A DNA stretch of 64,000 nt from Candidatus Omnitrophota bacterium (GCA_043823745.1 JBDRAN010000002.1:6296-70295); one strand, 5' to 3'; shown: positions 22,922-50,114, numbered from the stretch's first letter. The notes: generated from the sequence alone by a model not told the origin. Translations and numbers: made by a program.

Positions 22922-25900
22922 ATGGCTCACAGCGAGTTTGTCCACCTCCATGTCCACACCCAATACAGCCTCTTAGACGGCGCCTGTATCCTCGAGAGAC
23001 TCATCGAGAAGGCGGCAAAGTTTAAGCTTCCGGCTTTGGCGATTACCGACCACGGCAATATTTACGGCGCGATAAAATTTTATAAGCTCTGCATGGATAA
23101 AGGGGTAAAACCCATTATCGGGTGTGAAGCCTATATTGCACCAGGCTCGCGCCTTAAAAAAGAATATAAGCCCAACGAGAAGACGAATCATCACCTTATC
23201 CTGCTCGCCAAGGACGAAGAGGGGTACCACAATTTAGTGCGCCTGGTTTCGCTCGGCCATCTTGACGGTTTCTACTATCGTCCGCGTATCGATAAAGAAA
23301 TACTCACCCAGTATAGTAAGGGGCTCATCGGCTTAAGCGCGTGCTTAAAGGGCGAGGTGGCCTCAGCTATTGTCGCCGGAAGGATTAATGACGCCTATAA
23401 AATAGCTGATGAATATTTGAATATTTTCGGCCGCGGGAATTTCTATCTTGAGGTGATGGACAACGGCCTGCCCGAGCAGCATCGGGTTAACCAGTGTTTA
23501 GTTGCGATGTCTAAGGACCTGGGTATACCGATCGTATGCACCAATGATGTGCATTATCTTGAGCAAGATGAATCGTTCGCGCAGGAGGTGCTCCTGGGAA
23601 TTCAGACACAGACGACGCTCGATGACCCTAATCGTTTTAAGTTCAACAGTAACACGTTTTATTTTAGAAGCCCCGAAGAGATGCAGACGATCTTCAAAGA
23701 CATTCCGGGCGCAAGCCGTAATACGCTTGAAGTAACCCAGAAATGTAATGTAGTCATGGATTTTACAAAACTGCACCTACCGCATTTTGCCATACCCGGA
23801 GGCGAGAGCGAGGAGAGTTTCTTGCGCCGGCTTGTGTTTGAGAATGTTGCCAAGCGTTATCCGGCCGTGGGTGCTGAGGTTACGCAACGGCTTGAATATG
23901 AGCTTGGGGTGATTTCGAAAACGGGTTTTTCGAGTTACTTCATCATTGTGTGGGATCTGATTAAATTTGCCAAGGAAAATAATATTCCGGTTGGGCCAGG
24001 CCGAGGCAGCGCGGCCGGAAGTATCGTGAGTTATATTCTGGGAATTACCGATATCGACCCGCTTCGTTACGATTTACTTTTTGAGCGATTCTTGAATCCC
24101 GAACGTATCAGCATGCCTGATATCGATATCGATTTCTGTTACGAACGCCGGTCGCGCGTTCTTGAGTACGTCGGCAAGAAGTATGGTAAGGATAATGTAG
24201 CGCAAATTATTACGTTTGGAACGATGCTTGCCCGCGCGGTGGTGCGGGATACCGGTCGTGTGATGGGCTTTAGCTACACCGATGTCGATAAGATCGCAAA
24301 GATGATACCGCAGGTTCCCGGCCACCAGATCACCTTAAAAGAGGCGGTTGCTACCAATCCCGATCTTGAAGCAATTTATAATAGCGACGATAACATAAAG
24401 CGTCTTATCGATGTCGCGTCAAAACTTGAGGGCCTTTCCCGTCATGCGTCAACGCATGCGGCAGGCGTGGTTATATCAGATACGCCGCTTATTGAGCGTA
24501 TCCCCCTTATACGCGGTTCGGAAGGGGAAGTGGTGACCGGTTTCGATATGGAGTCTCTTGAGAAGACAGGCCTTCTGAAAATGGACTTTTTAGGACTTAA
24601 AACGTTAACGGTTATCGATGAAACGGTAAAGATTGTGAAACGTACCCATGGCACCATGATCGATATCCATGCGTTACCGTTCGATGATAAGAAAACGTTC
24701 CAGCTTCTCGGCGCCGGTGACACGATTGGGGTGTTCCAGCTTGAAAGCAGGGGGATGCGGGATATTTTAAACAAATTGATACCGACCCAATTTGAGGATT
24801 TGATCGCGGTGCTCGCCCTGTATCGGCCGGGACCATTAGGCAGCGGCATGGTCGATGATTTTATTGACCGCAAGAACGGAAAAAAAGGGGTTACGTATAC
24901 CCATCCACGACTTGAACCGATACTTAAAGAAACCTACGGTATTATTCTGTATCAGGAACAGACGATGCAGATTGTTTCACATCTTGCGGGTTTCAGTCTA
25001 TCCCGCGCCGATCTCCTGCGTAAAGCTATCGGTAAGAAAATTCCCGAGATAATGGAAGAGCAGCGCAACCTGTTTGTGCACGGCTGCGCTAAGAATGCTA
25101 TTTCAGCAAAGATCGCGAATCAGATCTTTGATTTAATTGATTATTTCTCGGGGTATGGATTTAATAAATGCGTTACGGGCGACACTAAAGTAATCGATGC
25201 ACAGAGTGGAGGGTTTATCACGCTGCAGGAGCTTTATGAAAATAGATCGATTGATTTTACTTTTGGGTTCAATAAAGATTTTAAAATCGAGAAACTACGT
25301 ATCATGGATGTGGTAGCAAATGGAGTAAAGTCTGTATATGCAGTAGCGACTTCGTTAGGTAAGGAAATAGAAGCTACCGCAAATCACCCTTTCCTGACCA
25401 TACATGGCTGGAAAAAATTAGAGGATCTTAAAAGTGGAGAACGAATTGCTTTGCCTCGCGTGTTCCCTTCCGTAGGCAAGGAGTCTATAGAGCCTTATAA
25501 ACTTATTGCGTTAGCGGGAATTATCTCTGAAGGCAATACGTGTCATCCTTCAGGAGTATATTTTTATGCTGCAAATCAACGTTTCTTTAATGATTTCGTA
25601 AAAAGCGTAAAATGTTTCCCGCATACGTTGCCCACTATTATAAGGCGTAGAAATATTTTCGAGGCATATTGCGGTACAGGCAGAGACGCTCGTTTTCTTA
25701 AAGGCAATATTCCCTGGAATAAGAGATGTGGTGTTAGTTGCGCAGAAGAAGTAATGATCCGTTCGGGTTTCCGGGTGTGGCTGGAAGAATTGGATCTGAT
25801 AGGGAAAAAAGCTGATGAAAAATTTATACCCGGTTTTATATTTCGACTCGATAATGAGTCATTGAAGTTATTTGTGGGGCGCCTATGGTCTGGAGATGGT

Positions 25901-27682
25901 TTTATTTTTAGCAAACAGAATACGTTGCCTTTTTATGCTTCGTCTTCACATAAGATAGCGCTTTCATTACATGACCTTTTGCTGCGCTTTGGAATCATAA
26001 GTAAGATTTATCAAAAGAAATTTAAATATCATTATAAAGGGGAAATGGATATTAAAAAAGGCTATGTGCTTATGGTGCATGGCGGAGTGAACATTGACAA
26101 TTTTATAGCGCACATTTGTCCGTATATTGTTGGTAGAGAGAAGGCGATAGTGCATCTGAAAGAATACTACAGAAAGGTTTCAAAGAATAAAGAAAGTAAA
26201 GACACTATTCCTCAAGAGATAAAATTTACAGTGCAGAGGCTTAAGGAAGAAAAAGGAATTTCCTGGAGACGTTTGCAGGGGGAATGCGGCCTCTCGATGA
26301 GAGAGTTTGTGGGAGGTGTCCACAAATATAAAAAAGGATTCAGAAGAAGCACTATTAAGAAGTTAGGAATATTTTTTGGTTCTGATGAACTTCTTTCTGC
26401 CGCGTCTTCTGAGGTGTATTGGGATGCTATCACTTCGATAAAATATGCCGGCCCTAAGCCCACGTATGATTTACAGATAGAGAAATATCATAATTTCATT
26501 GCTAATGGCATAGTGGTGCATAATTCACATTCAACCGCGTACGCGCTTATCTCCTATCAGACCGCGTATCTAAAAGCAAATTTTGGTGCTGAGTTTATGG
26601 CAGCGCTTTTAACCAGCGAACGAAATAATACGGATAAGATCCGTGAATATGTGAATGAAGCAGGCCGTATGGGTATCAAGGTGCTTCCGCCGGATATCAA
26701 TACCAGTTTTGCTAACTTTACCGTTACTGATGACGGTAATATCCGGTTTGGATTGCTCGCGATTAAAAATGTCGGTGGGGCTGCACTTACGAGTATTATT
26801 GAGGTGCGTAAAGCCGCAAAATTTGGCGGTATTTTTGATTTTTGCGAGCGCGTGGATTCACGTACGGTAAACAAAAAAGTAATCGAAAGTCTCATTAAAT
26901 CAGGAGCAATGGATACGTTTGGTCTTCGCCGCGCGCAGATGGCGGCTATTCTTGATGGGGTCTTAAGCCGCGGGGCCGGGAAAAAGGATGCTTCTCAGCT
27001 TATGTTATTCTCTGCGCCAAAAAAAGAAGTAGTTCCCGACGTGGCGGAGTGGCCGCTTGCCCAAATTCTTAATTTTGAAAAAACCCTTCTGGGTATGTAT
27101 ATCACCAGCCACCCTTTACATGCGTACGGGACGCTTGTTAAACATATCGCGCGTGAAGAAATTGCTGCTCTCTATGAAGGTGAACGGGCCGGCGAGGTGA
27201 TTGTGTGCGGGGTGCTTGAGAAGGTTAAGGTCATTACGACCCGCAAGGGTAATGACCGGATGGCGATCGTAAAGATTGAGGATGATACTGCGGGTCTTGA
27301 CGTATTTGTATTTCCCCGTCTTTTTGAAGAGTGCAATTCTTTTTTAAAAGAAAAAGCCGTCGTGCTGCTCGTGGGCAAGCTTGAGTCCAAGGAGAAAGTT
27401 CCCAAGATTCTTGCTTCCAAGGTTATCCTTATGGAAAACATCGCTGCAAGCATAAAACAGGTTAACATTACCATCGAGAAGAACAAATTCCCGCTCGATA
27501 AGCTGCGCGGTATTTTCGTAAAAAGCAGAGGTACGATCCCCGTTGTCTTTACCCTCAAAAACTCAAAGATGGAAGGCATTAAGATCAAAACAGCCAATAA
27601 TTTTTTCCTTAACCCCAGCGATGATGTGCTCAAGGAGCTCGATGCGCTCATCGGGCAGGAAAACCTATCACTTACGCTTTAA
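22922..27682 (+). CDS. dnaE: DNA polymerase III alpha subunit interrupted by an in-frame intein
   Basis: PHP domain (HLHVHTQYSLLDG) and polymerase core. The conserved GYGFNK/SHSTAYAL motif is split by a 452-aa insertion. The extein alone is about 1134 aa. Confidence 0.9.
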   Translation: MAHSEFVHLHVHTQYSLLDGACILERLIEKAAKFKLPALAITDHGNIYGAIKFYKLCMDKGVKPIIGCEAYIAPGSRLKKEYKPNEKTNHHLILLAKDEEGYHNLVRLVSLGHLDGFYYRPRIDKEILTQYSKGLIGLSACLKGEVASAIVAGRINDAYKIADEYLNIFGRGNFYLEVMDNGLPEQHRVNQCLVAMSKDLGIPIVCTNDVHYLEQDESFAQEVLLGIQTQTTLDDPNRFKFNSNTFYFRSPEEMQTIFKDIPGASRNTLEVTQKCNVVMDFTKLHLPHFAIPGGESEESFLRRLVFENVAKRYPAVGAEVTQRLEYELGVISKTGFSSYFIIVWDLIKFAKENNIPVGPGRGSAAGSIVSYILGITDIDPLRYDLLFERFLNPERISMPDIDIDFCYERRSRVLEYVGKKYGKDNVAQIITFGTMLARAVVRDTGRVMGFSYTDVDKIAKMIPQVPGHQITLKEAVATNPDLEAIYNSDDNIKRLIDVASKLEGLSRHASTHAAGVVISDTPLIERIPLIRGSEGEVVTGFDMESLEKTGLLKMDFLGLKTLTVIDETVKIVKRTHGTMIDIHALPFDDKKTFQLLGAGDTIGVFQLESRGMRDILNKLIPTQFEDLIAVLALYRPGPLGSGMVDDFIDRKNGKKGVTYTHPRLEPILKETYGIILYQEQTMQIVSHLAGFSLSRADLLRKAIGKKIPEIMEEQRNLFVHGCAKNAISAKIANQIFDLIDYFSGYGFNKCVTGDTKVIDAQSGGFITLQELYENRSIDFTFGFNKDFKIEKLRIMDVVANGVKSVYAVATSLGKEIEATANHPFLTIHGWKKLEDLKSGERIALPRVFPSVGKESIEPYKLIALAGIISEGNTCHPSGVYFYAANQRFFNDFVKSVKCFPHTLPTIIRRRNIFEAYCGTGRDARFLKGNIPWNKRCGVSCAEEVMIRSGFRVWLEELDLIGKKADEKFIPGFIFRLDNESLKLFVGRLWSGDGFIFSKQNTLPFYASSSHKIALSLHDLLLRFGIISKIYQKKFKYHYKGEMDIKKGYVLMVHGGVNIDNFIAHICPYIVGREKAIVHLKEYYRKVSKNKESKDTIPQEIKFTVQRLKEEKGISWRRLQGECGLSMREFVGGVHKYKKGFRRSTIKKLGIFFGSDELLSAASSEVYWDAITSIKYAGPKPTYDLQIEKYHNFIANGIVVHNSHSTAYALISYQTAYLKANFGAEFMAALLTSERNNTDKIREYVNEAGRMGIKVLPPDINTSFANFTVTDDGNIRFGLLAIKNVGGAALTSIIEVRKAAKFGGIFDFCERVDSRTVNKKVIESLIKSGAMDTFGLRRAQMAAILDGVLSRGAGKKDASQLMLFSAPKKEVVPDVAEWPLAQILNFEKTLLGMYITSHPLHAYGTLVKHIAREEIAALYEGERAGEVIVCGVLEKVKVITTRKGNDRMAIVKIEDDTAGLDVFVFPRLFEECNSFLKEKAVVLLVGKLESKEKVPKILASKVILMENIAASIKQVNITIEKNKFPLDKLRGIFVKSRGTIPVVFTLKNSKMEGIKIKTANNFFLNPSDDVLKELDALIGQENLSLTL
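25169..26524 (+). mobile_element. Intein with a LAGLIDADG homing-endonuclease domain inserted in DnaE (Cys1 ... His-Asn, followed by Ser+1)
   Basis: Block A CVTGDTKV directly after GFNK. A TxxH block B (ATANHPF). LAGLIDADG-like motifs LAGIISEGN and LWSGDGFIF. Terminal VVHN followed by SHS, which restores the DnaE motif. 1356 nt, in frame. Confidence 0.85.
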
Positions 27683-27816: not shown

Positions 27817-27910
27817 GGAAAAAAGCGAAAAACTCATAATTTCATGATATAATTCATAAATGGGTTTATCCGGCCTCATAAACGCAATAATCAAAACATT
27901 CATCATAAAA
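27817..27910 (+). repeat. Direct repeat copy A (about 94 bp): duplicate of the AAR-like gene's promoter plus first 17 codons
   Basis: About 93% identical to 30903-30997. Encodes MGLSGLINAIIKTFIIK then diverges to a stop after 29 aa. Confidence 0.85.
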
Positions 27911-28075
27911 CATTTAAGTCTGAAAAACCTCTCGTTAACATTAGCCGCTTAACGCATTTGCCTTTTTGTTCTAGCCCGACAAAATAGCATTCTTTTGGCT
28001 GATTTTTCTGATATAATTACGTAGGTATAATCCACTGCGGGGCATAATGCCTCTAAGCCACGGCATAAGCAAAAT

Positions 28076-29164
28076 ATGGAAAGAAAAAAAACTATTCTTT
28101 TGACCGGCGCTACTGGTCTTTTGGGTTCGTATTTATTGAAACTTTTTCTCGAAGAAGGCCATAAAGTTTATGCCCTCGCAAGAAGCAAAGATCATATTAA
28201 TGCAACCAGCAGGGTTATAAATTCCTTACGATTGTGGGATGAAACTATCTCTCCATCAAGCTATGCAGGAAAATTGATCGTAGTAGATGGTGATATTACA
28301 TCTTCTGACTTCAAAATTGAAACAAAAGAGATCATTGCACTTTTTCGATCGGAAGTTGAAATGATTTTTCATTGCGCAGCCTTAACGCTTTTTCGAGCCC
28401 CCCTAGAGATAATGCGAAAAATAAATGTAGAAGGTACTAAGAATATTTTAGATTTTTCTTTGACTTGCCTGCGGCTAAAAAATATAAATTATATAAGTAC
28501 AGCTTTTGTCGCGGGCAACAAAAATGGAATCGATTTTGACGAAAATATGTTGGAGTTGGGCCAGGGTTTTTATAATACCTACGAACAAACAAAATATGAA
28601 GTAGAAATATTGCTTAAAGATTACCAAAAAAAAGGCCTGATAATTTCTATTTTTCGTCCCAGCGTAGTAATGGGTGATTCTAAAGAGGGAAAGACTAATA
28701 ATTTCCATCTTTTTTATGAACCAACTCGTTTTTTTTCCCAAGGATTCTTTCCCGCGTTTCCTATGAATTTAGATTGTTCGTTGAACCTTATAAATATAGA
28801 TATCGCCGCTAAAGCAATTTTTATTCTAAGCGATATGGAAAAATCTGACGTTTATCATATCGTTTCCCCGGAAGATACTAATATGCATTTTTTTGCTAAA
28901 CTCGCCTCTTCTTATTTCAATTTCGAAATGCCGGAATTTATTCCTGAAGAGAAATTTGACTTCAGTGCCTGGACTGATGGGCAAAAATTATTAGGCGGAC
29001 CTTTCGTTCCTTATTGTAATTATAAGACGAAATTTGTATCACATAAAACACAACAAATTATGAGCCAATATAATTTTATATATCCTCAAATCAACGAGAG
29101 TAATCTTACTAAAATATTTGAATACTGCGATAAAGTTGGTTTTATAAAAAGGAAAAGACTATAA
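28076..29164 (+). CDS. Fatty acyl-CoA/thioester reductase-like SDR (NAD_binding_4 / male-sterility-type reductase domain)
   Basis: ILLTGATGLLGSYLL...YALAR...VVDGDIT...IFHCAA...NVEGT pattern typical of thioester-reductase domains. 362 aa. AT-rich island. Confidence 0.65.
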   Translation: MERKKTILLTGATGLLGSYLLKLFLEEGHKVYALARSKDHINATSRVINSLRLWDETISPSSYAGKLIVVDGDITSSDFKIETKEIIALFRSEVEMIFHCAALTLFRAPLEIMRKINVEGTKNILDFSLTCLRLKNINYISTAFVAGNKNGIDFDENMLELGQGFYNTYEQTKYEVEILLKDYQKKGLIISIFRPSVVMGDSKEGKTNNFHLFYEPTRFFSQGFFPAFPMNLDCSLNLINIDIAAKAIFILSDMEKSDVYHIVSPEDTNMHFFAKLASSYFNFEMPEFIPEEKFDFSAWTDGQKLLGGPFVPYCNYKTKFVSHKTQQIMSQYNFIYPQINESNLTKIFEYCDKVGFIKRKRL

Positions 29165-29171
29165 ATCAAAC

Positions 29172-30803
29172 ATGAATATCTTTTTTATACTTAGCCTGCT
29201 TATTGCAATCACTAGTTTAGGATTATCTTTTTTTCTGCTGTCTAAAACATGGCAAAAACCGGTCAATAGAGTTTTTGGCCTTTTTGCTATCAGTATAGGA
29301 GTTTGGGGTTTAGGCGGGAGTGTCATATCTATTATCCCTAAAGCTAATTATCAATTAGCTCAGTTTTGGTGGCAAATTGCTTACACCGGTATAATTCTTA
29401 TACCTGTACTTTATGCACGGTTTATTTTTGAATTCCTCGATCTGAAGAGGAAATTTTTTATTCGTACCATGTATCTAATAGGATTAATTTTCTTATTGCT
29501 AAATTGGTTCGATGGATCAAGATTTTTCTTAGGTGATTTAAAATTTATGTTTGGTCAATTCTATTGGCATGACTGGATTGAATCAAAAAGTATAAGTTAT
29601 ATTATTTTTTATCTAAGTTTTTATTGGTGTCTTCTGAGTTATCCTTTCTTGCTTTTATTATTAAATTTCAAAAAAACAACGGGATTGCGACGCGAACAAA
29701 CGAAATATATTATTTTCGGATCTATATTTGGCTGGTTGGGGGGCGAATCAAATTTTCTGCCCGATTTTGGTATCAACATTTACCCCTTTCTCAACTTACT
29801 TACGCCTTTTTACACATTGATTGTTGCCTACGCCATCCTCAAGCATCGCCTCATGGACATAGACATCGTTATTAAGAGAACAACCGTTTACTCAATTCTG
29901 GTCTCCTTAATTACTATTCTCTATTTTACAATTATTTACATCACAGAATTACTCTTTCGACGGTTTGTTGGCTATAAATCAATACCCATGGCATTGGGTT
30001 TTATTTCTCTTTTTACTTTGATATTCCAACCTCTGAAGAATTTTATCCAGTCCTTTATAGACAAATATTTCTTCAAAGGCTCGCAAGCTACCCTAGCAGA
30101 AGAACTCCAAAAAGCGCAGGAAGAGCTAAAAAGGGCTGAACGTCTAAAGGCAGTAGGCACTCTTGCTGCCGGTATGGCGCACGAGATAAAAAATCCGTTA
30201 ACAGGGATTATGACATTTACGGAGTATCTGCCTACCAAGTATACGGACCCTGCTTTTATAGAAAAATTCCATAAAATAGTTTCTACGGAAGTAAATAAGA
30301 TAAACTCAATTGTCGAACAGCTCTTAGATTTCTCTAAACCAAAACCACTGAAATTACAAGAAGCTAATATACACAATATCATAGATCAGACACTTTCTCT
30401 GCTTAATAATGACATCATTAAGTACAAAATCAATGTGAGCAGAAATTACGACAACACCTTTCCTATGCTGCATATAGACCCTAACCAAATACAACAGGTA
30501 TTTTGTAATTTTTTCCTTAATGCCATTGACGCTTTAAAAGAAGGGGGTGAATTGACCATTGCTACCCAACAGCTACCAGATAATGCTGAAATCACTATCA
30601 GCGACACCGGCCAAGGTATCCCTAAGAAAGATTTAGAACATATCTTTGACCCATTTTATACTACAAAAGAGACAGGGACAGGCTTGGGGATGTCGATTAT
30701 TTACGGAATAATTAAAGAACATAAAGGCATTATTGGTGTAGAAAGTGAGGTAAATAAAGGAACGACGTTTACGATAAAATTACCTTATTGTATCAATTTT
30801 TGA
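29172..30803 (+). CDS. Polytopic membrane sensor histidine kinase (HK1)
   Basis: N-terminal about 300 aa with at least 6 TM helices ending in YAILKHRLMDIDIV. HisKA H-box AAGMAHEIKNPL. HATPase_c (GTGLGMSII). Confidence 0.85.
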   Translation: MNIFFILSLLIAITSLGLSFFLLSKTWQKPVNRVFGLFAISIGVWGLGGSVISIIPKANYQLAQFWWQIAYTGIILIPVLYARFIFEFLDLKRKFFIRTMYLIGLIFLLLNWFDGSRFFLGDLKFMFGQFYWHDWIESKSISYIIFYLSFYWCLLSYPFLLLLLNFKKTTGLRREQTKYIIFGSIFGWLGGESNFLPDFGINIYPFLNLLTPFYTLIVAYAILKHRLMDIDIVIKRTTVYSILVSLITILYFTIIYITELLFRRFVGYKSIPMALGFISLFTLIFQPLKNFIQSFIDKYFFKGSQATLAEELQKAQEELKRAERLKAVGTLAAGMAHEIKNPLTGIMTFTEYLPTKYTDPAFIEKFHKIVSTEVNKINSIVEQLLDFSKPKPLKLQEANIHNIIDQTLSLLNNDIIKYKINVSRNYDNTFPMLHIDPNQIQQVFCNFFLNAIDALKEGGELTIATQQLPDNAEITISDTGQGIPKKDLEHIFDPFYTTKETGTGLGMSIIYGIIKEHKGIIGVESEVNKGTTFTIKLPYCINF

Positions 30804-30851
30804 TACAAGAGGTTAATTCTATTCCATACGTATACGTACAATCAATAAATG

Positions 30852-30886
30852 GCGATTCTACTAGAATCGCTCTTTGACTTTTTTGA
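30852..30886 (+). terminator. Possible intrinsic terminator after HK1
   Basis: GCGATTCTA-c-TAGAATCGC inverted repeat followed by TCTTTGACTTTTTT. Confidence 0.4.
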
Positions 30887-30902
30887 CACAGTGACGCAGA
30901 CG

Positions 30903-30997
30903 GGAAAAAAGCGAAAAACTCATAATTTCATGATATAATCAACAAAATGGGTTTATCCGGCCTCATAAACGCAATAATCAAAACATTCATCATAAAA
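30903..30997 (+). repeat. Direct repeat copy B (about 95 bp): native promoter and 5' end of the AAR-like gene
   Basis: GGGAAAAAAGCGAAAAACTCATAATTTCATGATATAAT...ATGGGTTTATCCGGCCTCATAAACGCAATAATCAAAACATTCATCATAAAA matches 27817-27910. Confidence 0.85.
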
Positions 30998-32095
30998 TTA
31001 TTGCCTCGGTTTATCCTTCGGAAATTAGGCTACAATCGAGGAATCGCTTTTATTGCTAATCTTCCTAATACGGCTTCCGTGCCTCTTTCCGTACCTTTCA
31101 GAAAGCTGGTAATCGCAATAATGCGGCAACTTTCGCCGGTTGTTGTTTCTCCCCTAGGTGGTTTTAAGAATAAAGATGGGGCGGAGGTCAAGGGGTGGGT
31201 AATCCTTTGTCTGCTCACTGCCGCCGAAATTCTAACGCATGCAGATTTCGCAAGAAAACGAGTCGTGCAGGCCGCTTGCTTGGCAGAACGCATGGGCGTG
31301 GATATTATAACATTAGGCGCTTTTACCTCGATTGTAACGCATGACGGTTTGGACTTAATAGGTAAAACAAAAGTTGGGATTACAACCGGCAATCCATACT
31401 CCGCAATCGTGGCAATTCAAAATATGCGAGAGGCTGCTCGGTTGGTAAATTTAGACATTATCAATGCAACGGTCGCAATCGTCGGTGCTGCTGGGTCTGT
31501 TGGATCAGGTTGTGCTCAGTTTCTGTTAGGAAAGGTAAAAAAGTTTTTGCTTATAGATTGGCAATATAATGCTTTGCGCGAGTTATATGATACGATTAAT
31601 CCAAAATCTACTAGTGTTGAAATGTTAAAAGATGTTCAGGGTATTGCTGCGGCTGATATTGTTATTCTTGTCACAAGTTCTGTCACCGGAATTATCGGAA
31701 AAGACTTATTAAAACCAGGCGCAATAGTAATAGACGGCGCAAATCCCCCCAATATTTCTAATGAAACGCTAAAATCAAGAAGTGATATTCTTGTGATTTC
31801 TTCCGCAATCGTAAAGGTGCCCGGTTTGCGTCATCCTTTTAATTTTAATCTGGGCTCAGGGGAAACATTCGGCTGTGTCGGTGAAGCTTTTGCTCTTGCC
31901 TGGACAAAGCATAAAGGTAATTATGCATTAGGTAAGGTTAGCGTACAACAGATGCAAGATATTGAAAGTATCGCCAGCGACGCAGGCTTTACCATCGCTC
32001 CGTTTCGTAATTCTCTTGGCTTAATTTCCAAAGAACAGATTGCTCATGTCCGTAACATAATACATTCTAATTATTTGAATACTGCGATAAAATAG
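30947..32095 (+). CDS. Acyl-ACP reductase (AAR)-family protein, homolog of the cyanobacterial alkane-pathway reductase
   Basis: Blocks ITLGAFTSIV, ITTGNPYSAIVAI, ATVAIVGAAGSVGSGCAQFL, IVIDGANPPN and FGCVGEAFALAW match AAR recalled from memory (ISALGGFTSII, FTTGNTHTAYV, ATVAVVGATGDIGSAV, LIDGGYPKN, FACFAEAML). Apparently leaderless (TGaTATAAT 7 nt before the ATG). Confidence 0.65.
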   Translation: MGLSGLINAIIKTFIIKLLPRFILRKLGYNRGIAFIANLPNTASVPLSVPFRKLVIAIMRQLSPVVVSPLGGFKNKDGAEVKGWVILCLLTAAEILTHADFARKRVVQAACLAERMGVDIITLGAFTSIVTHDGLDLIGKTKVGITTGNPYSAIVAIQNMREAARLVNLDIINATVAIVGAAGSVGSGCAQFLLGKVKKFLLIDWQYNALRELYDTINPKSTSVEMLKDVQGIAAADIVILVTSSVTGIIGKDLLKPGAIVIDGANPPNISNETLKSRSDILVISSAIVKVPGLRHPFNFNLGSGETFGCVGEAFALAWTKHKGNYALGKVSVQQMQDIESIASDAGFTIAPFRNSLGLISKEQIAHVRNIIHSNYLNTAIK

Positions 32096-32117
32096 GCTTT
32101 ATAACCAAAAATAAAAC

Positions 32118-33194
32118 ATGCCTGCAAGAAAAAAACAATCAATAAACACAATAGTAGAAAAGATCGGTGAGAGTAAAAAACGAAAAATAATAATCGATTT
32201 TTTCTCTAAAGATATAGAAAATTTTGACCAGAGCATAAAGAATCTAGAGAAAAAAACACCCCTCAAGTCTTTCCCTAATAACAAAATTTGCTTATATGTT
32301 TTCCGACTTATGAATAAGTTATTAGATAAGGCACGAGTAATTGAAGAAATAATTAGCGATAAAACGCTTTTAAAAGCGATAAAGCAAGCGTTTAGAGAAC
32401 AAATAGAATATTTTCTTGGCAAGAGCACGTTAATGCGTTGGGGGTATTATAAACCCTCCGGGCATCCCGGCGACTATGAATTAATAGAAGCATTTTATGA
32501 TAATATGCCTCTTTCCAAAGGCATAGGTTTTTGTGGTGACAAATATATTCTTCAAGACGGCTATGTAGAAGCAGTTAAAATCAGAAAAGATTTGATGCTG
32601 CAAAAACTGGCTTCTTTTATAAAGGATAATACATCAAAACATCTAAATATTATGAATCTTGGGTGCGGATCAAGCAGGGAAATACGAGAGTTGTTTTCTA
32701 CTGCTCATGTCTTAATTCCTCGCGACAAAAGAATAACATTTACCTTAATTGATTGGGACGAAAAAGCTCTAGAGTTTTCAAAGCAATCGTTATTAAAATA
32801 TCGAAGTAACGATGCTATTGAATTCATATTTTTTAAGATAAACGTGCTCGATTTATATAAAAATTCTTCTCAATATACAAAAGCCCTGATGAAGCAGGAT
32901 TTGATTTATAGTATTGGTTTGGCAGATTATATGCCAAATTTAGTTTTTGGCGAAATAATAAAATTTTGTTTTAGTTTATTAAAAAAGAAAGGTACTCTAA
33001 CTATAGCGCACAAAAATATTAAAGTGCATAAAAGTGTTGCTTCCGATTGGGCATGCGATTGGCATTTTTATCCTCGCAGTATCGAGGATGTAATTAAAAT
33101 TATTGACGAAAGTTTTGAAGACCATAAACGTAAAGTAGAAACTGTCAGTGAAAAAACAAAGCATATTTTTTTCGTGGATATAAGTAAACCATGA
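32118..33194 (+). CDS. Class I SAM-dependent methyltransferase with an about 170-aa N-terminal extension
   Basis: Motif I LNIMNLGCGSSREI, acidic motif II (TLIDWDE), and a later motif (GTLTIAH). 358 aa. Confidence 0.6.
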   Translation: MPARKKQSINTIVEKIGESKKRKIIIDFFSKDIENFDQSIKNLEKKTPLKSFPNNKICLYVFRLMNKLLDKARVIEEIISDKTLLKAIKQAFREQIEYFLGKSTLMRWGYYKPSGHPGDYELIEAFYDNMPLSKGIGFCGDKYILQDGYVEAVKIRKDLMLQKLASFIKDNTSKHLNIMNLGCGSSREIRELFSTAHVLIPRDKRITFTLIDWDEKALEFSKQSLLKYRSNDAIEFIFFKINVLDLYKNSSQYTKALMKQDLIYSIGLADYMPNLVFGEIIKFCFSLLKKKGTLTIAHKNIKVHKSVASDWACDWHFYPRSIEDVIKIIDESFEDHKRKVETVSEKTKHIFFVDISKP

Positions 33195-35260
33195 AGTCAA
33201 ATTTTTATTTTGTGTCACATTTAGCCGCAGCATTACTTGTTCTGTTTTTTTCATTCTTTGTTTTTATAAAAAATAAAAAATCAAAAGTTAATCTTAGTTT
33301 TTCAATATTTGGATCAACAATTTTTAGCTGGCTTTTATTTTCTTCTTTTGCAGCTATTTCCGCCGAAAAAGAGATGAATCTTTTTTGGTTCAAAATGAGT
33401 TATATGGGTATTATTCTTATACCGCATACTTTCTTGTATTTTGTATCGTGCGTAACAGAAAAAAAGAATACTTTTATTATATTTTTCAGTTGGCTCTATG
33501 CCTTTAGTTTCATTCTATTGTTATGGTTTACTAATTTATTTATAGTCGGTATTTATGAATATCCTTGGGGGGTTTATCCTCGTGCTTTTCCAATCTCACA
33601 CCTTCTATTTTTATCATCATTTATTATTTTGTTTGTATGCGCAATCCGTGCTTTAATCTCGAGAGTGATTGAAAAAGCTAATGTTACTACAGAAAAATTA
33701 AGAGCCACTTATATACTTATGGGAACTTTATTCGGAGTTTGCGGAAGTGTAGATTTTTTAGCTAACTATGGGATAAACTTTTATCCTTCTGGCTTCATTT
33801 TTATGATACTTTATCCTTCGATTCTAAGTTATGCCATCCTCAAATACCGCTTAATGGATATTCGCGTTGCTTTAACCCGCGCGGGAATTTTCATTGCTGT
33901 TTATACGTTTGTTTTAGGCATCCCGCTTTTAATTGGTTTCAAAACAGATAAATGGCTCTGGGCGATGCTTTTAATGGGCGTTCTTTCAAGCGTAGGGCCG
34001 TTTGTGTATAGCTATTTACGCCAACAGATTGAAAATGCGATCTTTAAGGAACAACAAAGATATCAGCAAGCCATCAAAGAATTAGCTAAACGGATGGTAC
34101 AGATAAGAGACATGGCCACTTTGTCTAAGACGATTATTTCCGATGTGTTCAAAGTCGCGCAACCGGAATTTATTGTCCTGTACATATTTTCCAAAGATAG
34201 TAAATCATACGTACTCCAGGACAACAGTATAAAAAATAATTCTACGTTTGAGACAGACATTTCAGCGGATTCAATACTCGTAGAGAATTTATCCCGTAAC
34301 AAACGGCCGGTGATTCTTGAGAGCGGTTTTTCCTTAGATTTACCGCTGGAAACGCTTATTGTGCCTTTCTTCGCGGAAAGCAGCCTCTATGGCATAATGT
34401 TTATCGGTCCTAAGCCGAAAAAGGCTGTTTATATAGAATCAGATTTCATTGCTTTTGATATTCTTTCTTCTCAGGCGTCCTTAGCCATCGAAAATTGTCT
34501 CTTCTGGCAGGAGGAAAAAACTCGAATAGCAAAAGAAGAGCAGATAAAACGAATGCAGGCCATGGATCATTTCTCTGCGGCCATGGCTCATGAAATAGAC
34601 AATCCCATCACTGCAATAGCCGGGCAATTGCGTTTGATAGAGCTTATCCTTAGCGAAAAATTTAAAGACTTGATTCCTGCCCAAGACTTAGCTGAATTAA
34701 CTACTTATGCCGGTACAACGGTAACTAATCTTGGAAGAATATCGAAAATGATAAAGGCAGTAAGGGAATTTTCCAGGCAAGATACGGGCGAATTTTCGCT
34801 TTTATCAGTGGAGGAGGCTGTCGATTTTACTTTAGCGATAGTTGGGCCGCAGGTCAAATACAAAAAAGTATCTTTCACCAAAGAAATAGAAGATAACCTT
34901 TCTGTACGCGGCAACAGGATTTATCTGGCGGAAGCTTTGATGAACTTAATCGTCAATAGTATGCATGCGGTTCAAGATAAACCGGAGTGGCAGGGAAAAA
35001 TAGATTTAAAAGTTAAAAAAGCCGGTAGAGAAAAATGTCTTATTGAAATACGCGATAATGGTTATGGTATAAAAAAACATCTTCTTGAAAATATTTTCTT
35101 AGATTTTGTCAGCACTAAGGCTTCTTCTGAAGGAACGGGGATGGGGTTAGCTAGAGTAAGAAAAATAATCCAAATGCACAGCGGCAAAGTATGGGCGCAA
35201 AGTGAAGGCGCCGGTAAAGGGGCAACTTTTTTTATCGAACTTCCCTTGGCAGAGAAATAG
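33191..35260 (+). CDS. Polytopic membrane sensor histidine kinase (HK2), paralog of HK1 with an extra cytoplasmic (GAF/PAS-like) region
   Basis: The N-terminal TM domain ends in YAILKYRLMDIRVAL, the same motif as HK1. H-box SAAMAHEIDNPI. HATPase_c GTGMGLARV. 689 aa. 4-nt overlap with the methyltransferase. Confidence 0.85.
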   Translation: MKSNFYFVSHLAAALLVLFFSFFVFIKNKKSKVNLSFSIFGSTIFSWLLFSSFAAISAEKEMNLFWFKMSYMGIILIPHTFLYFVSCVTEKKNTFIIFFSWLYAFSFILLLWFTNLFIVGIYEYPWGVYPRAFPISHLLFLSSFIILFVCAIRALISRVIEKANVTTEKLRATYILMGTLFGVCGSVDFLANYGINFYPSGFIFMILYPSILSYAILKYRLMDIRVALTRAGIFIAVYTFVLGIPLLIGFKTDKWLWAMLLMGVLSSVGPFVYSYLRQQIENAIFKEQQRYQQAIKELAKRMVQIRDMATLSKTIISDVFKVAQPEFIVLYIFSKDSKSYVLQDNSIKNNSTFETDISADSILVENLSRNKRPVILESGFSLDLPLETLIVPFFAESSLYGIMFIGPKPKKAVYIESDFIAFDILSSQASLAIENCLFWQEEKTRIAKEEQIKRMQAMDHFSAAMAHEIDNPITAIAGQLRLIELILSEKFKDLIPAQDLAELTTYAGTTVTNLGRISKMIKAVREFSRQDTGEFSLLSVEEAVDFTLAIVGPQVKYKKVSFTKEIEDNLSVRGNRIYLAEALMNLIVNSMHAVQDKPEWQGKIDLKVKKAGREKCLIEIRDNGYGIKKHLLENIFLDFVSTKASSEGTGMGLARVRKIIQMHSGKVWAQSEGAGKGATFFIELPLAEK

Positions 35261-35275
35261 AAAGGAGGATTAATT

Positions 35276-35662
35276 ATGGAGAAGCGCAAGGTTCTTATAG
35301 TGGAGGATGAACAGGACATTTGCCAGTTTATGAAAAGGATGCTTGAATTAAAAGGATGCGAAGTTTTTACCGCTCTCACCGCGCAAGAAGGCTGGGAAAT
35401 TTTTCAAAGAGAAAAGCCCCAAGCTTGCTCTATCGATATTCTTCTTTCCCATTCAGAATTTGACGGCACAGAACTTTTAAGAAGAATAAGGCAAATAGAT
35501 AAAAACGTTTTGTGCGTAATGGTAACGCGTATCGATGACAAAAAAACTATGAATGAAGTGGAAGAACTAGGGATTGACGGAATTTTCATAAAACCTCCCG
35601 CGGCAGGAGAGCTGGATAATTTAATCGACCAGCTCGCGCATGGCAAAAGAAAGGAGGCATAA
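35276..35662 (+). CDS. Stand-alone response-regulator receiver domain (CheY-like)
   Basis: VLIVEDEQD acidic pocket, candidate phospho-Asp in SIDILLS, conserved Thr (CVMVT) and Lys (FIKP). 128 aa with no output domain. Confidence 0.75.
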   Translation: MEKRKVLIVEDEQDICQFMKRMLELKGCEVFTALTAQEGWEIFQREKPQACSIDILLSHSEFDGTELLRRIRQIDKNVLCVMVTRIDDKKTMNEVEELGIDGIFIKPPAAGELDNLIDQLAHGKRKEA

Positions 35663-35664
35663 CG

Positions 35665-36000
35665 ATGGCAAATCCATTACCAAATGAAGCTGAACTTTAT
35701 GCAAGAATGGAAAAAGAGCATATCAACGTGCATCCGCTTGTATGGGAATTCATTAATCATCATGTGAGAAATGATCTTAACTGGATTACGATGTGCATAG
35801 GTTTGCATCGTTCAACGCCGCGCTGGATACTGCGGCTTGCTTCTTCTCTTATCAGCCTCTTATACAAAATCTCCCGTCAACCGGGAGAGCCGCCCCCTGA
35901 TCTTTTGAGCGCTTTTAACGGCACTATTGAGAGAGTAAAAAATATCGACAGATTTTTAAAAAATTTGCGAGAGAAAACCTGTCCTGCTTACGATCTTTAA
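35665..36000 (+). CDS. Hypothetical protein, translationally coupled to the receiver
   Basis: 111-aa ORF starting 3 nt after the receiver stop. No recognisable motif. Confidence 0.4.
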   Translation: MANPLPNEAELYARMEKEHINVHPLVWEFINHHVRNDLNWITMCIGLHRSTPRWILRLASSLISLLYKISRQPGEPPPDLLSAFNGTIERVKNIDRFLKNLREKTCPAYDL

Positions 36001-40907: not shown

Positions 40908-42263
40908 ATGACGTTATCTGCATGGAAAAAAGAAATTAGCCTTGGTAATATGTTTACTACGCTGTTCTTTTTCGCCGCGGCGGCGTTTATTTTTAATGCG
41001 TACTCTATTGATTATTCCCCGCTGTTTATCGCGTTAATACTTATTGCGTACGCTCGGTATATCAAGAAGATAGAAAATCTTCCTCCGTATCTTGACGTGT
41101 ATCTTCTCGGGTCGCTGGCGATCTTGATTTCTCTGGTGACAACGGTATTCTTCAAAATTTCTGGCTATGGGATAGCCGCGATTGGTTTCGCTATTCTCGT
41201 CACCGTTCTCTTTGAGAATCTTGAATTTTCGTTGCTTTTTTCTTTTTTTATTTCAGCCATGGCGGCGAGCATTGAGGGAGGTAATTATGGCGTGGGGGTA
41301 AGCCTTTTTACCGGTTCCCTTATCGCGGCGAAACTCTCCTTTCGTATTCGTCACCGTTCCCAGCTTATGAAAGCAGGCCTTATTGGCGGCGTCGTTCAGT
41401 TTTTGACTGCCTTTATTCTTAACAAGGAACAGAGTTTTCTTTTCTTCCCTGCTATCGATATTCATCTTCTCCAAATTTGTCTTTTGAACGGTTTAATCTC
41501 AGCAATCGTGGTTTTAGGAATATTGCCGCTCTTTGAGTATGTTTTTCGCGTCGTGACCAACATTTCACTTCTTGAACTTTCCGATTCAAATCACCCGCTT
41601 CTGCGGCGGCTTATCTTGGAAGCGCCGGGAACCTACTCGCATTCTCTGGTAGTCGCTAATCTAAGCGAAGCGGCAGCTGACGCTGTCGGGGCAAATTCAC
41701 TCCTGGCGCGTGTCGGCGCGTATTATCATGATGTCGGTAAGATGCTTAAGCCAAACTATTTCGTGGAAAATCTTGTCGGTTACCGCGATGTGCACAAAGA
41801 TTTAAAACCTTCGATGAGCAAGATAATTATTATGAATCATGTTAAGGATGGGATAGAGCTTGGGCGGCAGTATCATCTTAACTCCCGTATTATTGATTTT
41901 ATCGAGCAGCATCACGGAAAGACGCTCGTGTATTATTTCTATCAAAAGGCTAAAGAGCTTGACCCCGAGAAAGAGCACGAGGAGGATTACCGGTATCTTG
42001 GCCCCAAGCCCCAAAGTAAAGAGGTCGTTATTGTGGCGCTCGCTGATTCGATTGAAGCGCTCTCGCGCACACTCGATGAGCCCACGCCGGCACGCATCGA
42101 GGAGACGGTTCGGGGGGTTGTGCGAAAAAGATTCCTGGAGGGCGAGCTCGATGAAAGTAACCTCACCTTGAATGATTTGGAGAAAATAACCCAGAGCTTT
42201 ATCCGCATGCTTAATGCCCTTTTCCATAGCCGCATTACTTACCCTAAAGACAGTAACCCATAA
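40908..42263 (+). CDS. 7TM receptor with intracellular HD hydrolase (PgpH/YqfF-type HD phosphohydrolase)
   Basis: N-terminal 7 TM region. HD motif YYHDVGK. Later HHG/D residues. Confidence 0.75.
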   Translation: MTLSAWKKEISLGNMFTTLFFFAAAAFIFNAYSIDYSPLFIALILIAYARYIKKIENLPPYLDVYLLGSLAILISLVTTVFFKISGYGIAAIGFAILVTVLFENLEFSLLFSFFISAMAASIEGGNYGVGVSLFTGSLIAAKLSFRIRHRSQLMKAGLIGGVVQFLTAFILNKEQSFLFFPAIDIHLLQICLLNGLISAIVVLGILPLFEYVFRVVTNISLLELSDSNHPLLRRLILEAPGTYSHSLVVANLSEAAADAVGANSLLARVGAYYHDVGKMLKPNYFVENLVGYRDVHKDLKPSMSKIIIMNHVKDGIELGRQYHLNSRIIDFIEQHHGKTLVYYFYQKAKELDPEKEHEEDYRYLGPKPQSKEVVIVALADSIEALSRTLDEPTPARIEETVRGVVRKRFLEGELDESNLTLNDLEKITQSFIRMLNALFHSRITYPKDSNP

Positions 42264-47924: not shown

Positions 47925-48500
47925 ATGGACGAAGGAAAATTATTTGTAAATCTTCACAATATTCTTAAAGGATATAAAAACAAATGTAGATTTTTAACCG
48001 AGCTAAAAACTTCATTATTTACTAAAAAAACATCTTATCAGCTTGATTTTGATATTATAATCATTCAGTTGCAAAACAGGGTAGAAGACATTTTTGACCG
48101 TATTCTAAGAACTTATACAAGACCTAAGCAAAAAGAGGAATATTTATATAACGATGAGATAATGAAAGATACTGCAGCAAAATTTACCCCCGAGGAGGTT
48201 AGGAACTTGATTATTTTTAATCTTGGTTTTAGTGAGAAAAAGAATTTGATTTTCAAGCTTTTTAAGGTATCTAAATCGACGAAAACGATAATTGATAAAC
48301 TTAATGAAATGAGAAATGCAATTGCCCATAGATATAGCGAAGACGATAAAAGATTTATTTATAAAGAAAAGAACGTTTTACATGATCCAAACACACTTAT
48401 TAATTTTTTTAGAGACAATTTCGAGGGTATTATTGAGATTCTTGAAATCGAAACTAAGCTACTAGATGCCATAGATAAAGCCGAAGGTGAACTTGGTTGA
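47925..48500 (+). CDS. Hypothetical protein with an HEPN-type Rx4H motif (possible RNase, toxin or Abi)
   Basis: C-terminal MRNAIAHRY fits the HEPN R-x(4-6)-H motif. Predicted all-alpha. AT-rich island. The TTG start at 47895 is also possible. Confidence 0.4.
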   Translation: MDEGKLFVNLHNILKGYKNKCRFLTELKTSLFTKKTSYQLDFDIIIIQLQNRVEDIFDRILRTYTRPKQKEEYLYNDEIMKDTAAKFTPEEVRNLIIFNLGFSEKKNLIFKLFKVSKSTKTIIDKLNEMRNAIAHRYSEDDKRFIYKEKNVLHDPNTLINFFRDNFEGIIEILEIETKLLDAIDKAEGELG

Positions 48501-49042
48501 AATTCAATGTGAGCCTTGAGCAGAGAAGAATGAACAAAAAACAATCAATCATAATATTGGTGTTATTATTTATTCCGATAATTAGTTGTTTTGCCGCCAG
48601 AGACTATCTCATAGACAAAGGACAGAAGCCTGACGAGTCAACTTTCCATGAATACAAGATTGACTTGGATGGCGACAAGAAACCAGAGTTAATCAAAGTT
48701 ATGTATGGCCCTGGTGTATCTGATAAATACCTTGAGATAGAAGTCTATAAGGCAGGCAAACTCATATCTCGTCTCAAGGGCAAGTTCGGTATCCAGTCCA
48801 ACTACAAGATAGAAGATATAGATAAGGACGGCAAAAAAGAAATCATCATCTGGAGCGGCATCTGGGATCCGCGCCTGTCTGGAGAGGATGGCGTGACGGA
48901 AGCAACGTACGAAGGTCACAGCAGTCCGCACAGATATATCGTAGCTACCTATAAACTCATAAGGGACGATTATTACCTTTGGAAGATATACACTACCAAG
49001 AAGAAGTACGAGCCGTTTTGTGAAGAGCAGCCAAAAGAGTAA
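48497..49042 (+). CDS. Hypothetical lipoprotein or secreted protein
   Basis: Signal peptide IIILVLLFIPIISC. 4-nt overlap with the previous gene. No motif recognised. Confidence 0.45.
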   Translation: MKFNVSLEQRRMNKKQSIIILVLLFIPIISCFAARDYLIDKGQKPDESTFHEYKIDLDGDKKPELIKVMYGPGVSDKYLEIEVYKAGKLISRLKGKFGIQSNYKIEDIDKDGKKEIIIWSGIWDPRLSGEDGVTEATYEGHSSPHRYIVATYKLIRDDYYLWKIYTTKKKYEPFCEEQPKE

Positions 49043-49076
49043 GGAAGCAAGAACGTTGAAACAAAAGGAGTGAAAA

Positions 49077-49565: not shown

Positions 49566-49593
49566 AGGTAAATATCAAAAACAATCAAAGCAA

Positions 49594-49959: not shown

Positions 49960-50114
49960 AATCTTTAGCCGCAAGGCGAGGATTTTTTTTGTTTATGGGT
50001 ATTATAAAAACAAAGTCAGTATTCGGATAGGTTTGAAATGCTCTGGGTAGCTGGTAGAAAGGCAAAAGTTTTAGCATGATGCGAAGGCTAAATGGCGATG
50101 GGTAGGAACGAAGA

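Follow-up and report, generated by a model that had tools for sequence, protein, structure and literature searches.

The two histidine kinase genes

A 64,000-nucleotide (nt) stretch of DNA from a Candidatus Omnitrophota bacterium (GCA_043823745.1 JBDRAN010000002.1:6296-70295), referred to here as the window and numbered from its first letter, encodes two sensor histidine kinases, HK1 and HK2. The span from 29172 to 35260 contains four genes on the + strand, for HK1, a reductase, a methyltransferase and HK2. A sequence-only reading of the window had described the kinases as paralogues with an unusual, entirely transmembrane (TM) sensor, and had proposed that this sensor perceives a lipid or a property of the membrane. 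We consider it likely that both are ordinary two-component kinases of class I with a HisKA_7TM input domain, that they represent two ancient Omnitrophota subfamilies, and that they occur in clusters beside type II fatty-acid- or polyketide-like genes. The kinase genes and their parts are as follows.

29172-30803, + strand: HK1, complete open reading frame (ORF) of 543 aa, sensor histidine kinase with nine predicted TM helices; HisKA_7TM, HisKA and HATPase_c domains
29196-29861, + strand: HK1 HisKA_7TM domain, TM1-TM7, aa 9-230
29829-29861, + strand: HK1 motif YAILKHRLMDI, aa 220-230; cytoplasmic end of TM7, turn, start of TM8
29853-30071, + strand: HK1 TM8, TM9 and juxtamembrane helix (FQPLKNFIQSFIDKYFF) leading toward the DHp domain; predicted helices 228-266 and 271-300, hydropathy peaks, conserved FQPLKN..IDK.FF
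30156-30788, + strand: HK1 kinase core; HisKA aa 329-390 (His337), PF00512 E=3.7e-14; HATPase_c aa 436-539, PF02518 E=4.8e-26
33191-35260, + strand: HK2, complete ORF of 689 aa, nine predicted TM helices; HisKA_7TM, GAF_3, HisKA and HATPase_c domains
33221-33862, + strand: HK2 HisKA_7TM domain, aa 11-224
33830-33862, + strand: HK2 motif YAILKYRLMDI, aa 214-224, within the HisKA_7TM domain
34127-34495, + strand: HK2 GAF domain, aa 313-435; PF13492, 27.8 bits against a cut-off of 27.0 (marginal)
34562-35251, + strand: HK2 kinase core; HisKA aa 458-533 (His467), HATPase_c aa 575-687

Both kinases are thus present as described, each as a complete ORF with HisKA and HATPase_c domains. The H, G1 and G2 boxes are all intact in HK1 (HEIKNP with His337, DTGQG, GTGLGM) and in HK2 (HEIDNP with His467, DNGYG, GTGMGL), and the N-box match is tentative in both. 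Judged by these motifs, HK1 and HK2 are class I (HisKA-type) histidine kinases, and the motifs are those of a competent kinase. The additional cytoplasmic segment of about 200 residues that had been noticed upstream of the H-box of HK2 is there (about 190 residues), and it contains the GAF_3 domain. Most HK2 orthologues have precomputed GAF, GAF_2 or GAF_3 matches. In HK1, the profile scan finds the membrane domain as the sole sensing module. The NCBI protein that is 100% identical to HK2 bears the name 'MAG: ATP-binding protein [Candidatus Omnitrophota bacterium]', MAG standing for metagenome-assembled genome.

Sensor family

Both N-terminal regions match the Pfam family HisKA_7TM (PF16927, 'N-terminal 7TM region of histidine kinase') over nearly the full model of 224 positions, HK1 with 55.1 bits (aa 9-230, model positions 3-222) and HK2 with 42.6 bits (aa 11-224, model positions 3-222), the Pfam gathering threshold being 28.6 bits. 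As the family is also very large, the sensor cannot be called unusual. HisKA_7TM had been named among the candidates for a Pfam profile search, and it turns out to be the actual domain. An exhaustive phmmer search of 1.84 billion cluster representatives returned 9,076 sequences at E<=0.001, of which 2,144 reach E<=1e-10 and 194 reach E<=1e-30, and close relatives carry the NCBI label 'histidine kinase N-terminal 7TM domain-containing protein'. As in the Pfam family, the domain of HK1 and HK2 stands at the N-terminus, ahead of the kinase core. There is essentially no difference from the family, and both kinases carry its signature Y-A-I-x-[KR]-[HY]-[RH]-L-[LM]-D. The Pfam model ends at TM7, whereas HK1, HK2 and their relatives add two further TM helices. 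Reviews of archaeal and bacterial kinases already list HisKA_7TM among the sensor domains, and give no ligand for it (PMC5847659, PMC6944256). No HisKA_7TM member with a known signal came to light in the literature that was searched, and a sequence search of the PDB with the sensor region returned nothing at E<=1. HK1 and HK2 are new additions to a sensor family that is already known and very large, and are ordinary apart from their clear genomic link to fatty-acid-type genes.

Other sensor classes do not accommodate the two kinases. Neither 5TMR-LYT (PF07694) nor 7TMR-DISM_7TM (PF07695) matches HK1 or HK2 at E<=0.01, and the Pfam scan found no membrane-sensor family other than PF16927 in either kinase at this level. 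Membership in 5TMR-LYT is rejected on this ground, and membership in 7TMR-DISM is rejected because both the PF07695 match and a periplasmic domain, the required DISMED, are missing. The intramembrane-sensing kinases of the BceS/LiaS type (Mascher's classification) are small proteins with two TM helices and a very short outer linker, and the nine TM helices predicted in HK1 and HK2 place them outside this class. PrsK (TIGR02916), the multi-TM GAF kinase of XrtA/PEP-CTERM systems, is likewise rejected, since HK1 reaches 103.7 bits where 300 are needed, and the match covers the kinase core alone (aa 304-538). On their predicted helices, HK1 and HK2 fall in the broad class of kinases that sense via multiple membrane helices.

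Relationship of HK1 and HK2

The N-terminal regions of HK1 and HK2 can be aligned, as the sequence-only reading had maintained. The alignment covers 338 residues with 27% identity (E=3e-23). A Smith-Waterman comparison of the first 300 residues of HK1 with the first 290 of HK2 scores 278, against 51.8 +/- 8.8 in 300 shuffles (z=25.7). The score is far above that of the shuffles, so that hydrophobic composition does not account for the similarity. The description of the kinases as paralogous is also correct, with the addition that the split is ancient, as each kinase is far nearer to its orthologues elsewhere than to its neighbour. The best relatives of HK1 are the kinases of loci L007, L008 and L009 (Omnitrophota MAGs; 55-58% identity), those of HK2 are P0184-P0186 (55-57%), and the identity between HK1 and HK2 is 27-31%. 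A recent local duplication is rejected on these figures. A short form (7TM domain and kinase, about 540 aa) and a long form (7TM domain, GAF and kinase, about 690-730 aa) coexist in L001, L002, L005, L008 and L009. By sequence comparison, HK1 and HK2 represent two ancient paralogous subfamilies, which are repeatedly found together in Omnitrophota.

To some extent the 7TM module moves separately from the remaining protein. In L006 and L008, the long kinases combine a 7TM part that is 43-48% identical to HK1 with a C-terminal part that is nearer to HK2. A Margulisbacteria contig (L017:5836-10072) contains four tandem stand-alone genes of about 345 aa, without a kinase domain, three of which have a recorded HisKA_7TM match. 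Next to these 9-TM genes lie a FabH-like gene and, as a gene of its own, a GAF histidine kinase. Going by this array, the membrane module may act as a separate subunit.

Topology, fold and conserved residues

A Kyte-Doolittle scan gives nine peaks in the membrane region of HK2 and eight in that of HK1, where the helix at about residues 179-197 stays under the threshold. Lysines and arginines lie mostly in alternate loops, the predicted inner ones. Residues 1-304 of HK1 were modelled as a monomer with AlphaFold2 from a 26-sequence alignment (pLDDT 87.2, pTM 0.77). The model contains nine helices (3-25, 30-54, 60-88, 94-119, 141-168, 171-192, 206-224, 228-266 and 271-300), a beta-hairpin (123-137) and a low-confidence turn (225-229). 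In both analyses the longest outer loop is the beta-hairpin of about 20 residues between TM4 and TM5. Of the topology put forward earlier, at least six TM helices and almost no periplasmic loops, the multi-TM character and the short outer loops hold, while the helix count has to be raised to nine. No periplasmic domain is predicted, neither in the hydropathy scan nor in the model.

The N-terminus is placed outside because the kinase core must be cytoplasmic. Therefore, the YAILK[HY]RLMDI motif falls where TM7 ends on the inner side and TM8 begins, and the membrane region continues past it. The strings that had been quoted for the two kinases were located at aa 220-238 of HK1 and aa 214-232 of HK2. 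The statement that the sensor ends in the motif is right in so far as the Pfam 7TM domain finishes with the motif, where TM7 reaches the cytoplasm, but TM8 and TM9 still follow in the hydropathy profile and in the model. Independent support for an outside N-terminus comes from relatives with tandem membrane modules. Two or three copies are present in 33 of the 184 close relatives (657-1,253 aa; P0042, P0050, P0114, P0178 and 29 others). The non-terminal copies span profile positions 1 to about 265, which correspond to eight helices, as the repetition of a module with an outside N-terminus needs, and the last copy alone has nine. The predicted architecture of the membrane region is thus one of nine helices with the N-terminus outside, made up of a seven-helix bundle and two relay helices.

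In a Foldseek search with the HK1 model, the best 50 matches are all G protein-coupled receptors (GPCRs), at E-values of about 1e-2, TM-scores of 0.4-0.57 and sequence identities of 5-16%. Like the eukaryotic GPCR fold, the model has a bundle of seven helices whose N-terminus is outside and whose C-terminal end is inside. The coupling motifs of class A GPCRs, DRY at the end of TM3 and NPxxY in TM7, are both absent on reading the HK1 sequence, where TM3 ends in ...YARFIFEF and TM7 reads PFLNLLTPFYTLIVAYAILKHR. In a study of September 2026, the structural matches of rhodopsin among AlphaFold models include archaeal and bacterial histidine kinases and diguanylate cyclases (PMC13581589). The GPCR-like fold of such kinases has thus already been reported. 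The likeness concerns the fold of a predicted model and does not establish homology.

Conservation was counted over 219 domain rows taken from the best relatives. Motif positions are among the most conserved of the domain (Y220 92%, A221 84%, I222 86%, L227 83%, D229 86%, I230 84%), and P205 (91%), W45, F84, Y101, Q176 and Y179 are also strongly conserved. A search with the degenerate pattern Y[AS]Ix[KR][HY][HR]L[LM]D brought up at least 600 stretches of metagenome DNA, and of 600 of these, 554 code for a relative of the sensor. The motif can be read from these sequences as a hallmark of the HisKA_7TM family that is not peculiar to HK1 and HK2. As read from the helix boundaries of the model, the conserved positions lie mostly near the cytoplasmic ends of TM3, TM4, TM6 and TM7, and fewer are found in the outer half.

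This distribution is what would be expected if family members read different ligands. The bundle might then bind a small soluble extracellular molecule in an outward pocket, much as BtsS or a GPCR does, and lipid genes nearby would be co-regulated cargo or targets. The GPCR-like fold and the outside N-terminus agree with such a pocket. There is also a precedent in BtsS, a 7-TM kinase that binds its ligand pyruvate in the membrane domain, so that multi-TM kinases can take soluble ligands (PMC10653868). However, charged or polar pocket residues were not identified, the domain has very short outer loops and strongly hydrophobic helices, and the genomic context described below favours lipids. By analogy, a soluble ligand is therefore conceivable, yet unlikely.

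The 7TM region could also be mainly an anchor or scaffold, or a gauge of bulk membrane properties such as thickness or fluidity, as in DesK, with chemical signals entering via the GAF domain of HK2 or via partners. HK2 and most relatives of the same type do have a GAF domain in the cytoplasm, a module known to bind small molecules, and the kinase-less 9-TM proteins beside a separate GAF kinase in L017 suggest a partner role. Against this speaks HK1, which has no other sensor domain. Moreover, the specific polar and aromatic residues of the helices and the near-invariant juxtamembrane motif exceed the needs of an anchor, and thickness sensing does not need a closed seven-helix bundle. An anchor or bulk gauge thus appears quite improbable.

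Acyl-lipid genes near related kinases

Sequence seeds for acyl-lipid families, namely ketosynthase (KS), acyl carrier protein (ACP), FabA/Z, thioester reductase (TR) and AAR-like reductase, were searched in 80 metagenome loci, 76 of which are anchored on the kinase. The metagenome scan had been seeded with a 10-sequence sensor alignment, a more diverse 16-sequence alignment being too divergent. The density of acyl-lipid genes per 100 kb depends on the distance to the kinase. It is 15.3 at 0-2.5 kb, 19.6 at 2.5-5 kb, 9.7 at 5-7.5 kb and 4.5 at 7.5-10 kb (76 loci). Among the loci of at least 8 kb, 24 of 38 have an acyl-lipid gene within 5 kb of the kinase. In the metagenome loci, every match to an amine-oxidase-like protein (16/16) or to a methyltransferase (10/10) is found no more than 2.5 kb from the kinase. 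The enrichment near the HK1-like subfamily is real, in loci that are inter-related and were picked by similarity to HK1.

Individual loci illustrate the context. The kinase neighbours are KS, TR, a GMC oxidoreductase and an amine-oxidase-like protein in L002, PlsX, FabH, FabD, a FabA-like protein and KS in L005, KS, AAR-like reductase and amine-oxidase-like protein in L008, and KS, ACP and an acyltransferase in L015. In L006 the order is KS, KS, ketoreductase (KR), FabA, amine-oxidase-like protein, TR and then the kinase. Nine loci (L018, L019, L020, L021, L023, L026, L030, L047 and L091) have a common operon of AAR-like reductase, KR, KS, FabZ, KS, ACP, KS or TR, amine-oxidase-like flavoprotein, 7TM kinase, receiver and HD-GYP, and in most of them the flavoprotein gene abuts or overlaps the kinase ORF. 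The distance-dependent tie of one HisKA_7TM subfamily to a stereotyped lipid-synthesis operon provides a concrete candidate ligand class.

A low-GC island around the kinases

HK1 and HK2 lie in an island (28076-36000) with a GC content of 0.364, compared to 0.467 in the rest of the window, and with a GC content at third codon positions of 0.28-0.41 over its seven genes. In order, these encode a thioester reductase, HK1, an AAR-like (PigE-N-like) reductase, a methyltransferase dependent on S-adenosylmethionine (SAM), HK2, a receiver-only regulator and a 111-aa protein, here called u111. The features other than the kinases are listed below.

27817-27910, + strand: repeat X1, upstream of the thioester reductase; copy of a promoter-like region and of the first 17 AAR-like codons; opens a 30-codon remnant ORF (27860-27952)
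28076-29164, + strand: stand-alone thioester reductase of the NAD_binding_4 or 'male sterility' type, 362 aa; PF07993 E=2.1e-51; TIGR01746 E=7.4e-40, below cut-off
29112-29147 and 32069-32104: repeats Y1 and Y2, 36 nt, 89% identical, over the 3' ends of both reductase genes, in different frames
30851-30871, + strand: terminator-like hairpin after HK1, 9-pair stem followed by a T-rich tail; consensus match only
30903-30997, + strand: repeat X2, promoter-like TGATATAAT and genuine start of the AAR-like gene
30947-32095, + strand: AAR-like / PigE-N-terminal-like acyl-thioester reductase, 382 aa; NF053554 (PigE N-terminal region) E=4.4e-39 and TIGR04058 (acyl-ACP reductase) E=4.1e-27, both below cut-offs; Pfam Shikimate_DH fold
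32118-33194, + strand: SAM-dependent methyltransferase, 358 aa; PF13847 E=7.7e-7; stop overlaps HK2 start (ATGA)
35276-35662, + strand: receiver-only response regulator, 128 aa; PF00072 E=6.4e-20
35665-36000, + strand: u111, small conserved protein of 111 aa, directly after the receiver gene

The island is flanked by dnaE on one side and by hisS-aspS on the other. Other Omnitrophota loci have a GC content of 0.35-0.42, and because the island matches them, lateral acquisition within the phylum is suggested. There are no tRNA genes in the whole 64-kb window that could have been an integration site. Elsewhere in the window there is a second low-GC patch, at 48001-50000 (GC 0.341). The flanking gene for the DNA polymerase III alpha subunit (22922-27682, + strand, 1,586 aa) contains an intein (aa 766-1201) with a LAGLIDADG_3 homing-endonuclease match (aa 983-1065). 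A different type of seven-TM receptor, a protein with 7TM-7TMR_HD and HD domains, is encoded at 40908-42263 (+ strand), in the usual order of phoH, HD protein and ybeY, and appears ordinary.

Genes like those of the island recur beside related kinases. The thioester reductase gene ends 8 nt upstream of HK1, and its orthologue in L006 (48% identical) lies directly upstream of the 7TM kinase. Homologues of the AAR-like reductase adjoin 7TM kinases in L001, L008, L018-L020 and L084. Methyltransferase orthologues (46-51% identical) are found directly upstream of HK2 orthologues in two unrelated neighbourhoods (L010:8940-12073 and L012:8937-12070), and the N-terminal part of about 160 residues of the methyltransferase has no family match. 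A tblastn search with the receiver identified no second receiver in the 64-kb window.

X1 and X2 form a 94-nt direct repeat with identical blocks of 37 nt and 53 nt, for which 100 shuffles gave 0 matches. The TGATATAAT box that is duplicated in the repeat is termed promoter-like only, and a promoter consensus scan of the window gave 33 sites where 27.2 +/- 6.9 are expected, which is not above chance. Terminator-like sites exceed chance expectation (22 versus 7.3 +/- 2.8), and are consensus matches only. With MT for the methyltransferase and RR for the receiver, the layout is X1-[TR]-Y1-HK1-hairpin-X2-[AAR-like]-Y2-MT-HK2-RR-u111. Two units, one of thioester reductase and HK1, the other of AAR-like reductase, methyltransferase, HK2, receiver and small protein, are implied by this sequence to share promoter-like DNA, because each follows a copy of the same 94-nt repeat. 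It looks as if a recent recombination or cassette exchange had put the TR-HK1 segment of about 3.0 kb ahead of an existing unit.

Repeats of this kind raise the question of whether the kinases are true neighbours at all. The source is a MAG, and the identical 37-nt and 53-nt blocks of repeat X can mislead assemblers, so that two strain variants might have been merged into one contig. However, the junction from HK1 to X2 (30804-30902) is unique sequence that an assembly would need to bridge, both kinase types adjoin in several independent assemblies, and the low GC content is coherent across the island. An assembly artefact is thus very unlikely.

The small protein u111

Neither Pfam nor NCBIfam contains a family that matches u111. 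Its homologues number about 90, with lengths of 84-121 aa, and u111 itself matches locus tag ABH865_00315 of Candidatus Omnitrophota. In six of six contexts u111 stands directly behind a receiver gene, and the cluster usually includes HisKA_7TM kinases (homologues at L010:12714-13061, L012:12553-12882, L013:6001-6330, L014:6001-6255 and L015:6001-6264). Residues M1, N3, E8, W27, H32, N36 and D37 are invariant, and the motif WELIxH(H)I(R/G)NDL resembles the HRVKNNL H-box of HisKA_2/HWE kinases. The AlphaFold2 model is a confident helical bundle, for which the fold search was non-specific. On its motif, u111 could be a stand-alone phosphotransferase between receivers. It is equally possible that it is a receiver-binding adaptor. 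The recurrent pair of receiver and u111 is possibly an unrecognised signalling component.

What the sensor may perceive

The proposal of an intramembrane sensor for a lipid or membrane cue is borne out in part. Because the membrane module is the only sensing module of HK1, it is reasonable to assume that sensing takes place in or at the membrane. The lipid part of the proposal gains indirect support from gene context, as acyl-lipid genes are enriched beside the HK1-like subfamily. On the other side, the nearest orthologues of HK2 occur without reductases.

A more specific form of the proposal takes the sensor as a dedicated receptor for a fatty aldehyde or alcohol that the adjacent reductases would produce, in other words for an autocrine or quorum-type lipid signal analogous to the hydrophobic autoinducers that LuxN, CqsS and LqsS/LqsT read in their membrane domains. 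The position of the reductases fits, one 8 nt upstream of HK1 and the other at the head of the HK2 unit. Moreover, the reductase genes share the 94-nt upstream repeat and the 36-nt 3'-end repeat, as if they were interchangeable slots before a kinase unit. The strong enrichment of acyl-lipid genes beside HK1 relatives and the stereotyped operon that ends in 7TM kinase, receiver and HD-GYP point in the same direction, and an output through HD-GYP proteins or bare receivers, not DNA-binding regulators, fits signalling better than simple pathway control. However, this is guilt by association, in sampled loci that are inter-related and were picked by HK1 similarity. The synthase part of the pathway is absent from the window, reductases are absent near the closest orthologues of HK2, and a Nitrospirae relative has no lipid genes nearby. 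A homologue of a known autoinducer synthase is also missing, as the island genes include neither a PLP (pyridoxal phosphate)-dependent acyl-CoA transferase nor a LuxM-type enzyme. On balance, a dedicated fatty aldehyde or alcohol receptor is possible, if rather doubtful.

The idea can be extended to the whole GPCR-fold 7TM kinase subfamily of Omnitrophota and relatives, which would then be a dedicated receptor for the long-chain aldehyde or alcohol produced by its own operon of KS, ACP, FabZ, KR, amine-oxidase-like and TR or AAR-like genes. A product of this type would be expected because the operon includes a terminal thioester or AAR-like reductase. Output would run via receivers and HD-GYP c-di-GMP (cyclic diguanylate) phosphodiesterases, with u111 as a DHp-like phosphotransferase (His32). 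The window would contain a pared-down version, acquired laterally, in which two receptors are combined with two alternative reductases. As a whole, this scheme is speculative and improbable.

In the reading that we prefer, HK1 and HK2 are conventional class I kinases with a HisKA_7TM input. Inside the seven-helix bundle, they would read either a small ligand, which is probably hydrophobic, or a cue carried by the membrane. Residues at the cytoplasmic face (H/F of TM3, Y of TM4, Q..Y of TM6, Y-A-I of TM7, and R-L-M-D-I) would pass the change to TM8 and TM9, and from there the signal would reach the DHp histidine through the conserved FQPLKN..IDK.FF helix. In HK1, the helix from TM9 to DHp would be continuous, and in HK2 a GAF checkpoint would come first and DHp thereafter. 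One or both kinases would then phosphorylate the lone receiver-only regulator, probably at Asp54, a residue assigned by eye from the sequence.

Several points weigh against this reading. Foldseek gives weak backing to the likeness with GPCRs (E about 1e-2, TM-score 0.4-0.57). The TM3 histidine, which is H in 79% of the 219 rows, is R83 in HK1 (nt 29418-29420) and Y83 in HK2 (nt 33437-33439). The placement of the conserved residues at the cytoplasmic face was read from the helix boundaries of a monomer model of a fragment, and the pairing of both kinases with a single receiver is assumed. The KS, ACP, FabZ and amine-oxidase genes that are seen beside relatives are all absent from the 64-kb window. 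Finally, the nearest orthologues of HK2 (55-57%) occur in a cassette of methyltransferase, HK2, receiver, small protein and a further receiver, with no reductase nearby.

As originally posed, the observation has little significance, since it rediscovers a catalogued sensor domain. The phylum concerned is an uncultivated one.

Comparison with known sensor kinases

HK1 and HK2 share with LuxN, CqsS and LqsS a multi-TM sensor without a sizeable periplasmic domain. Like the autoinducer receptor kinases (LuxN, CqsS, LqsS/LqsT), they adjoin genes of a hydrophobic small-molecule pathway. They differ in that a synthase of the LuxM, CqsA or LqsA type is absent here, and in that they are not hybrid kinases. 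The names LuxN, CqsS and LqsS are absent among the NCBIfam matches to the sensor region, with no direct comparison with reference sequences having been made. LuxN has nine TM helices. In their predicted odd number of helices and outside N-terminus, HK1 and HK2 are similar to LuxN and AgrC (PMC10653868). In the Lqs system of Legionella, the paralogous kinases LqsS and LqsT converge on LqsR (PMC5289986), and the locus described here likewise combines two paralogous kinases with one nearby receiver-type regulator. Along with BtsS, the kinases LuxN, AgrC and LqsS/LqsT are precedents for a ligand that binds within a multi-helix membrane domain.

LytS-type kinases have a GAF domain after the membrane domain. 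In BtsS, which is of this type (PF07694), the ligand site lies within the 7-helix membrane domain and the N-terminus is periplasmic, a layout similar to that proposed for HK1 and HK2. [quoted passage not shown] BtsS also pairs with a LytTR regulator, and such a regulator is absent beside HK1 and HK2. GPCRs signal via a G protein, whereas the output of HK1 and HK2 is a covalently attached kinase that is reached through two extra helices. The predicted combination of a GPCR-like bundle and two relay helices would thus provide a wiring diagram for a seven-helix receptor that drives a histidine kinase.

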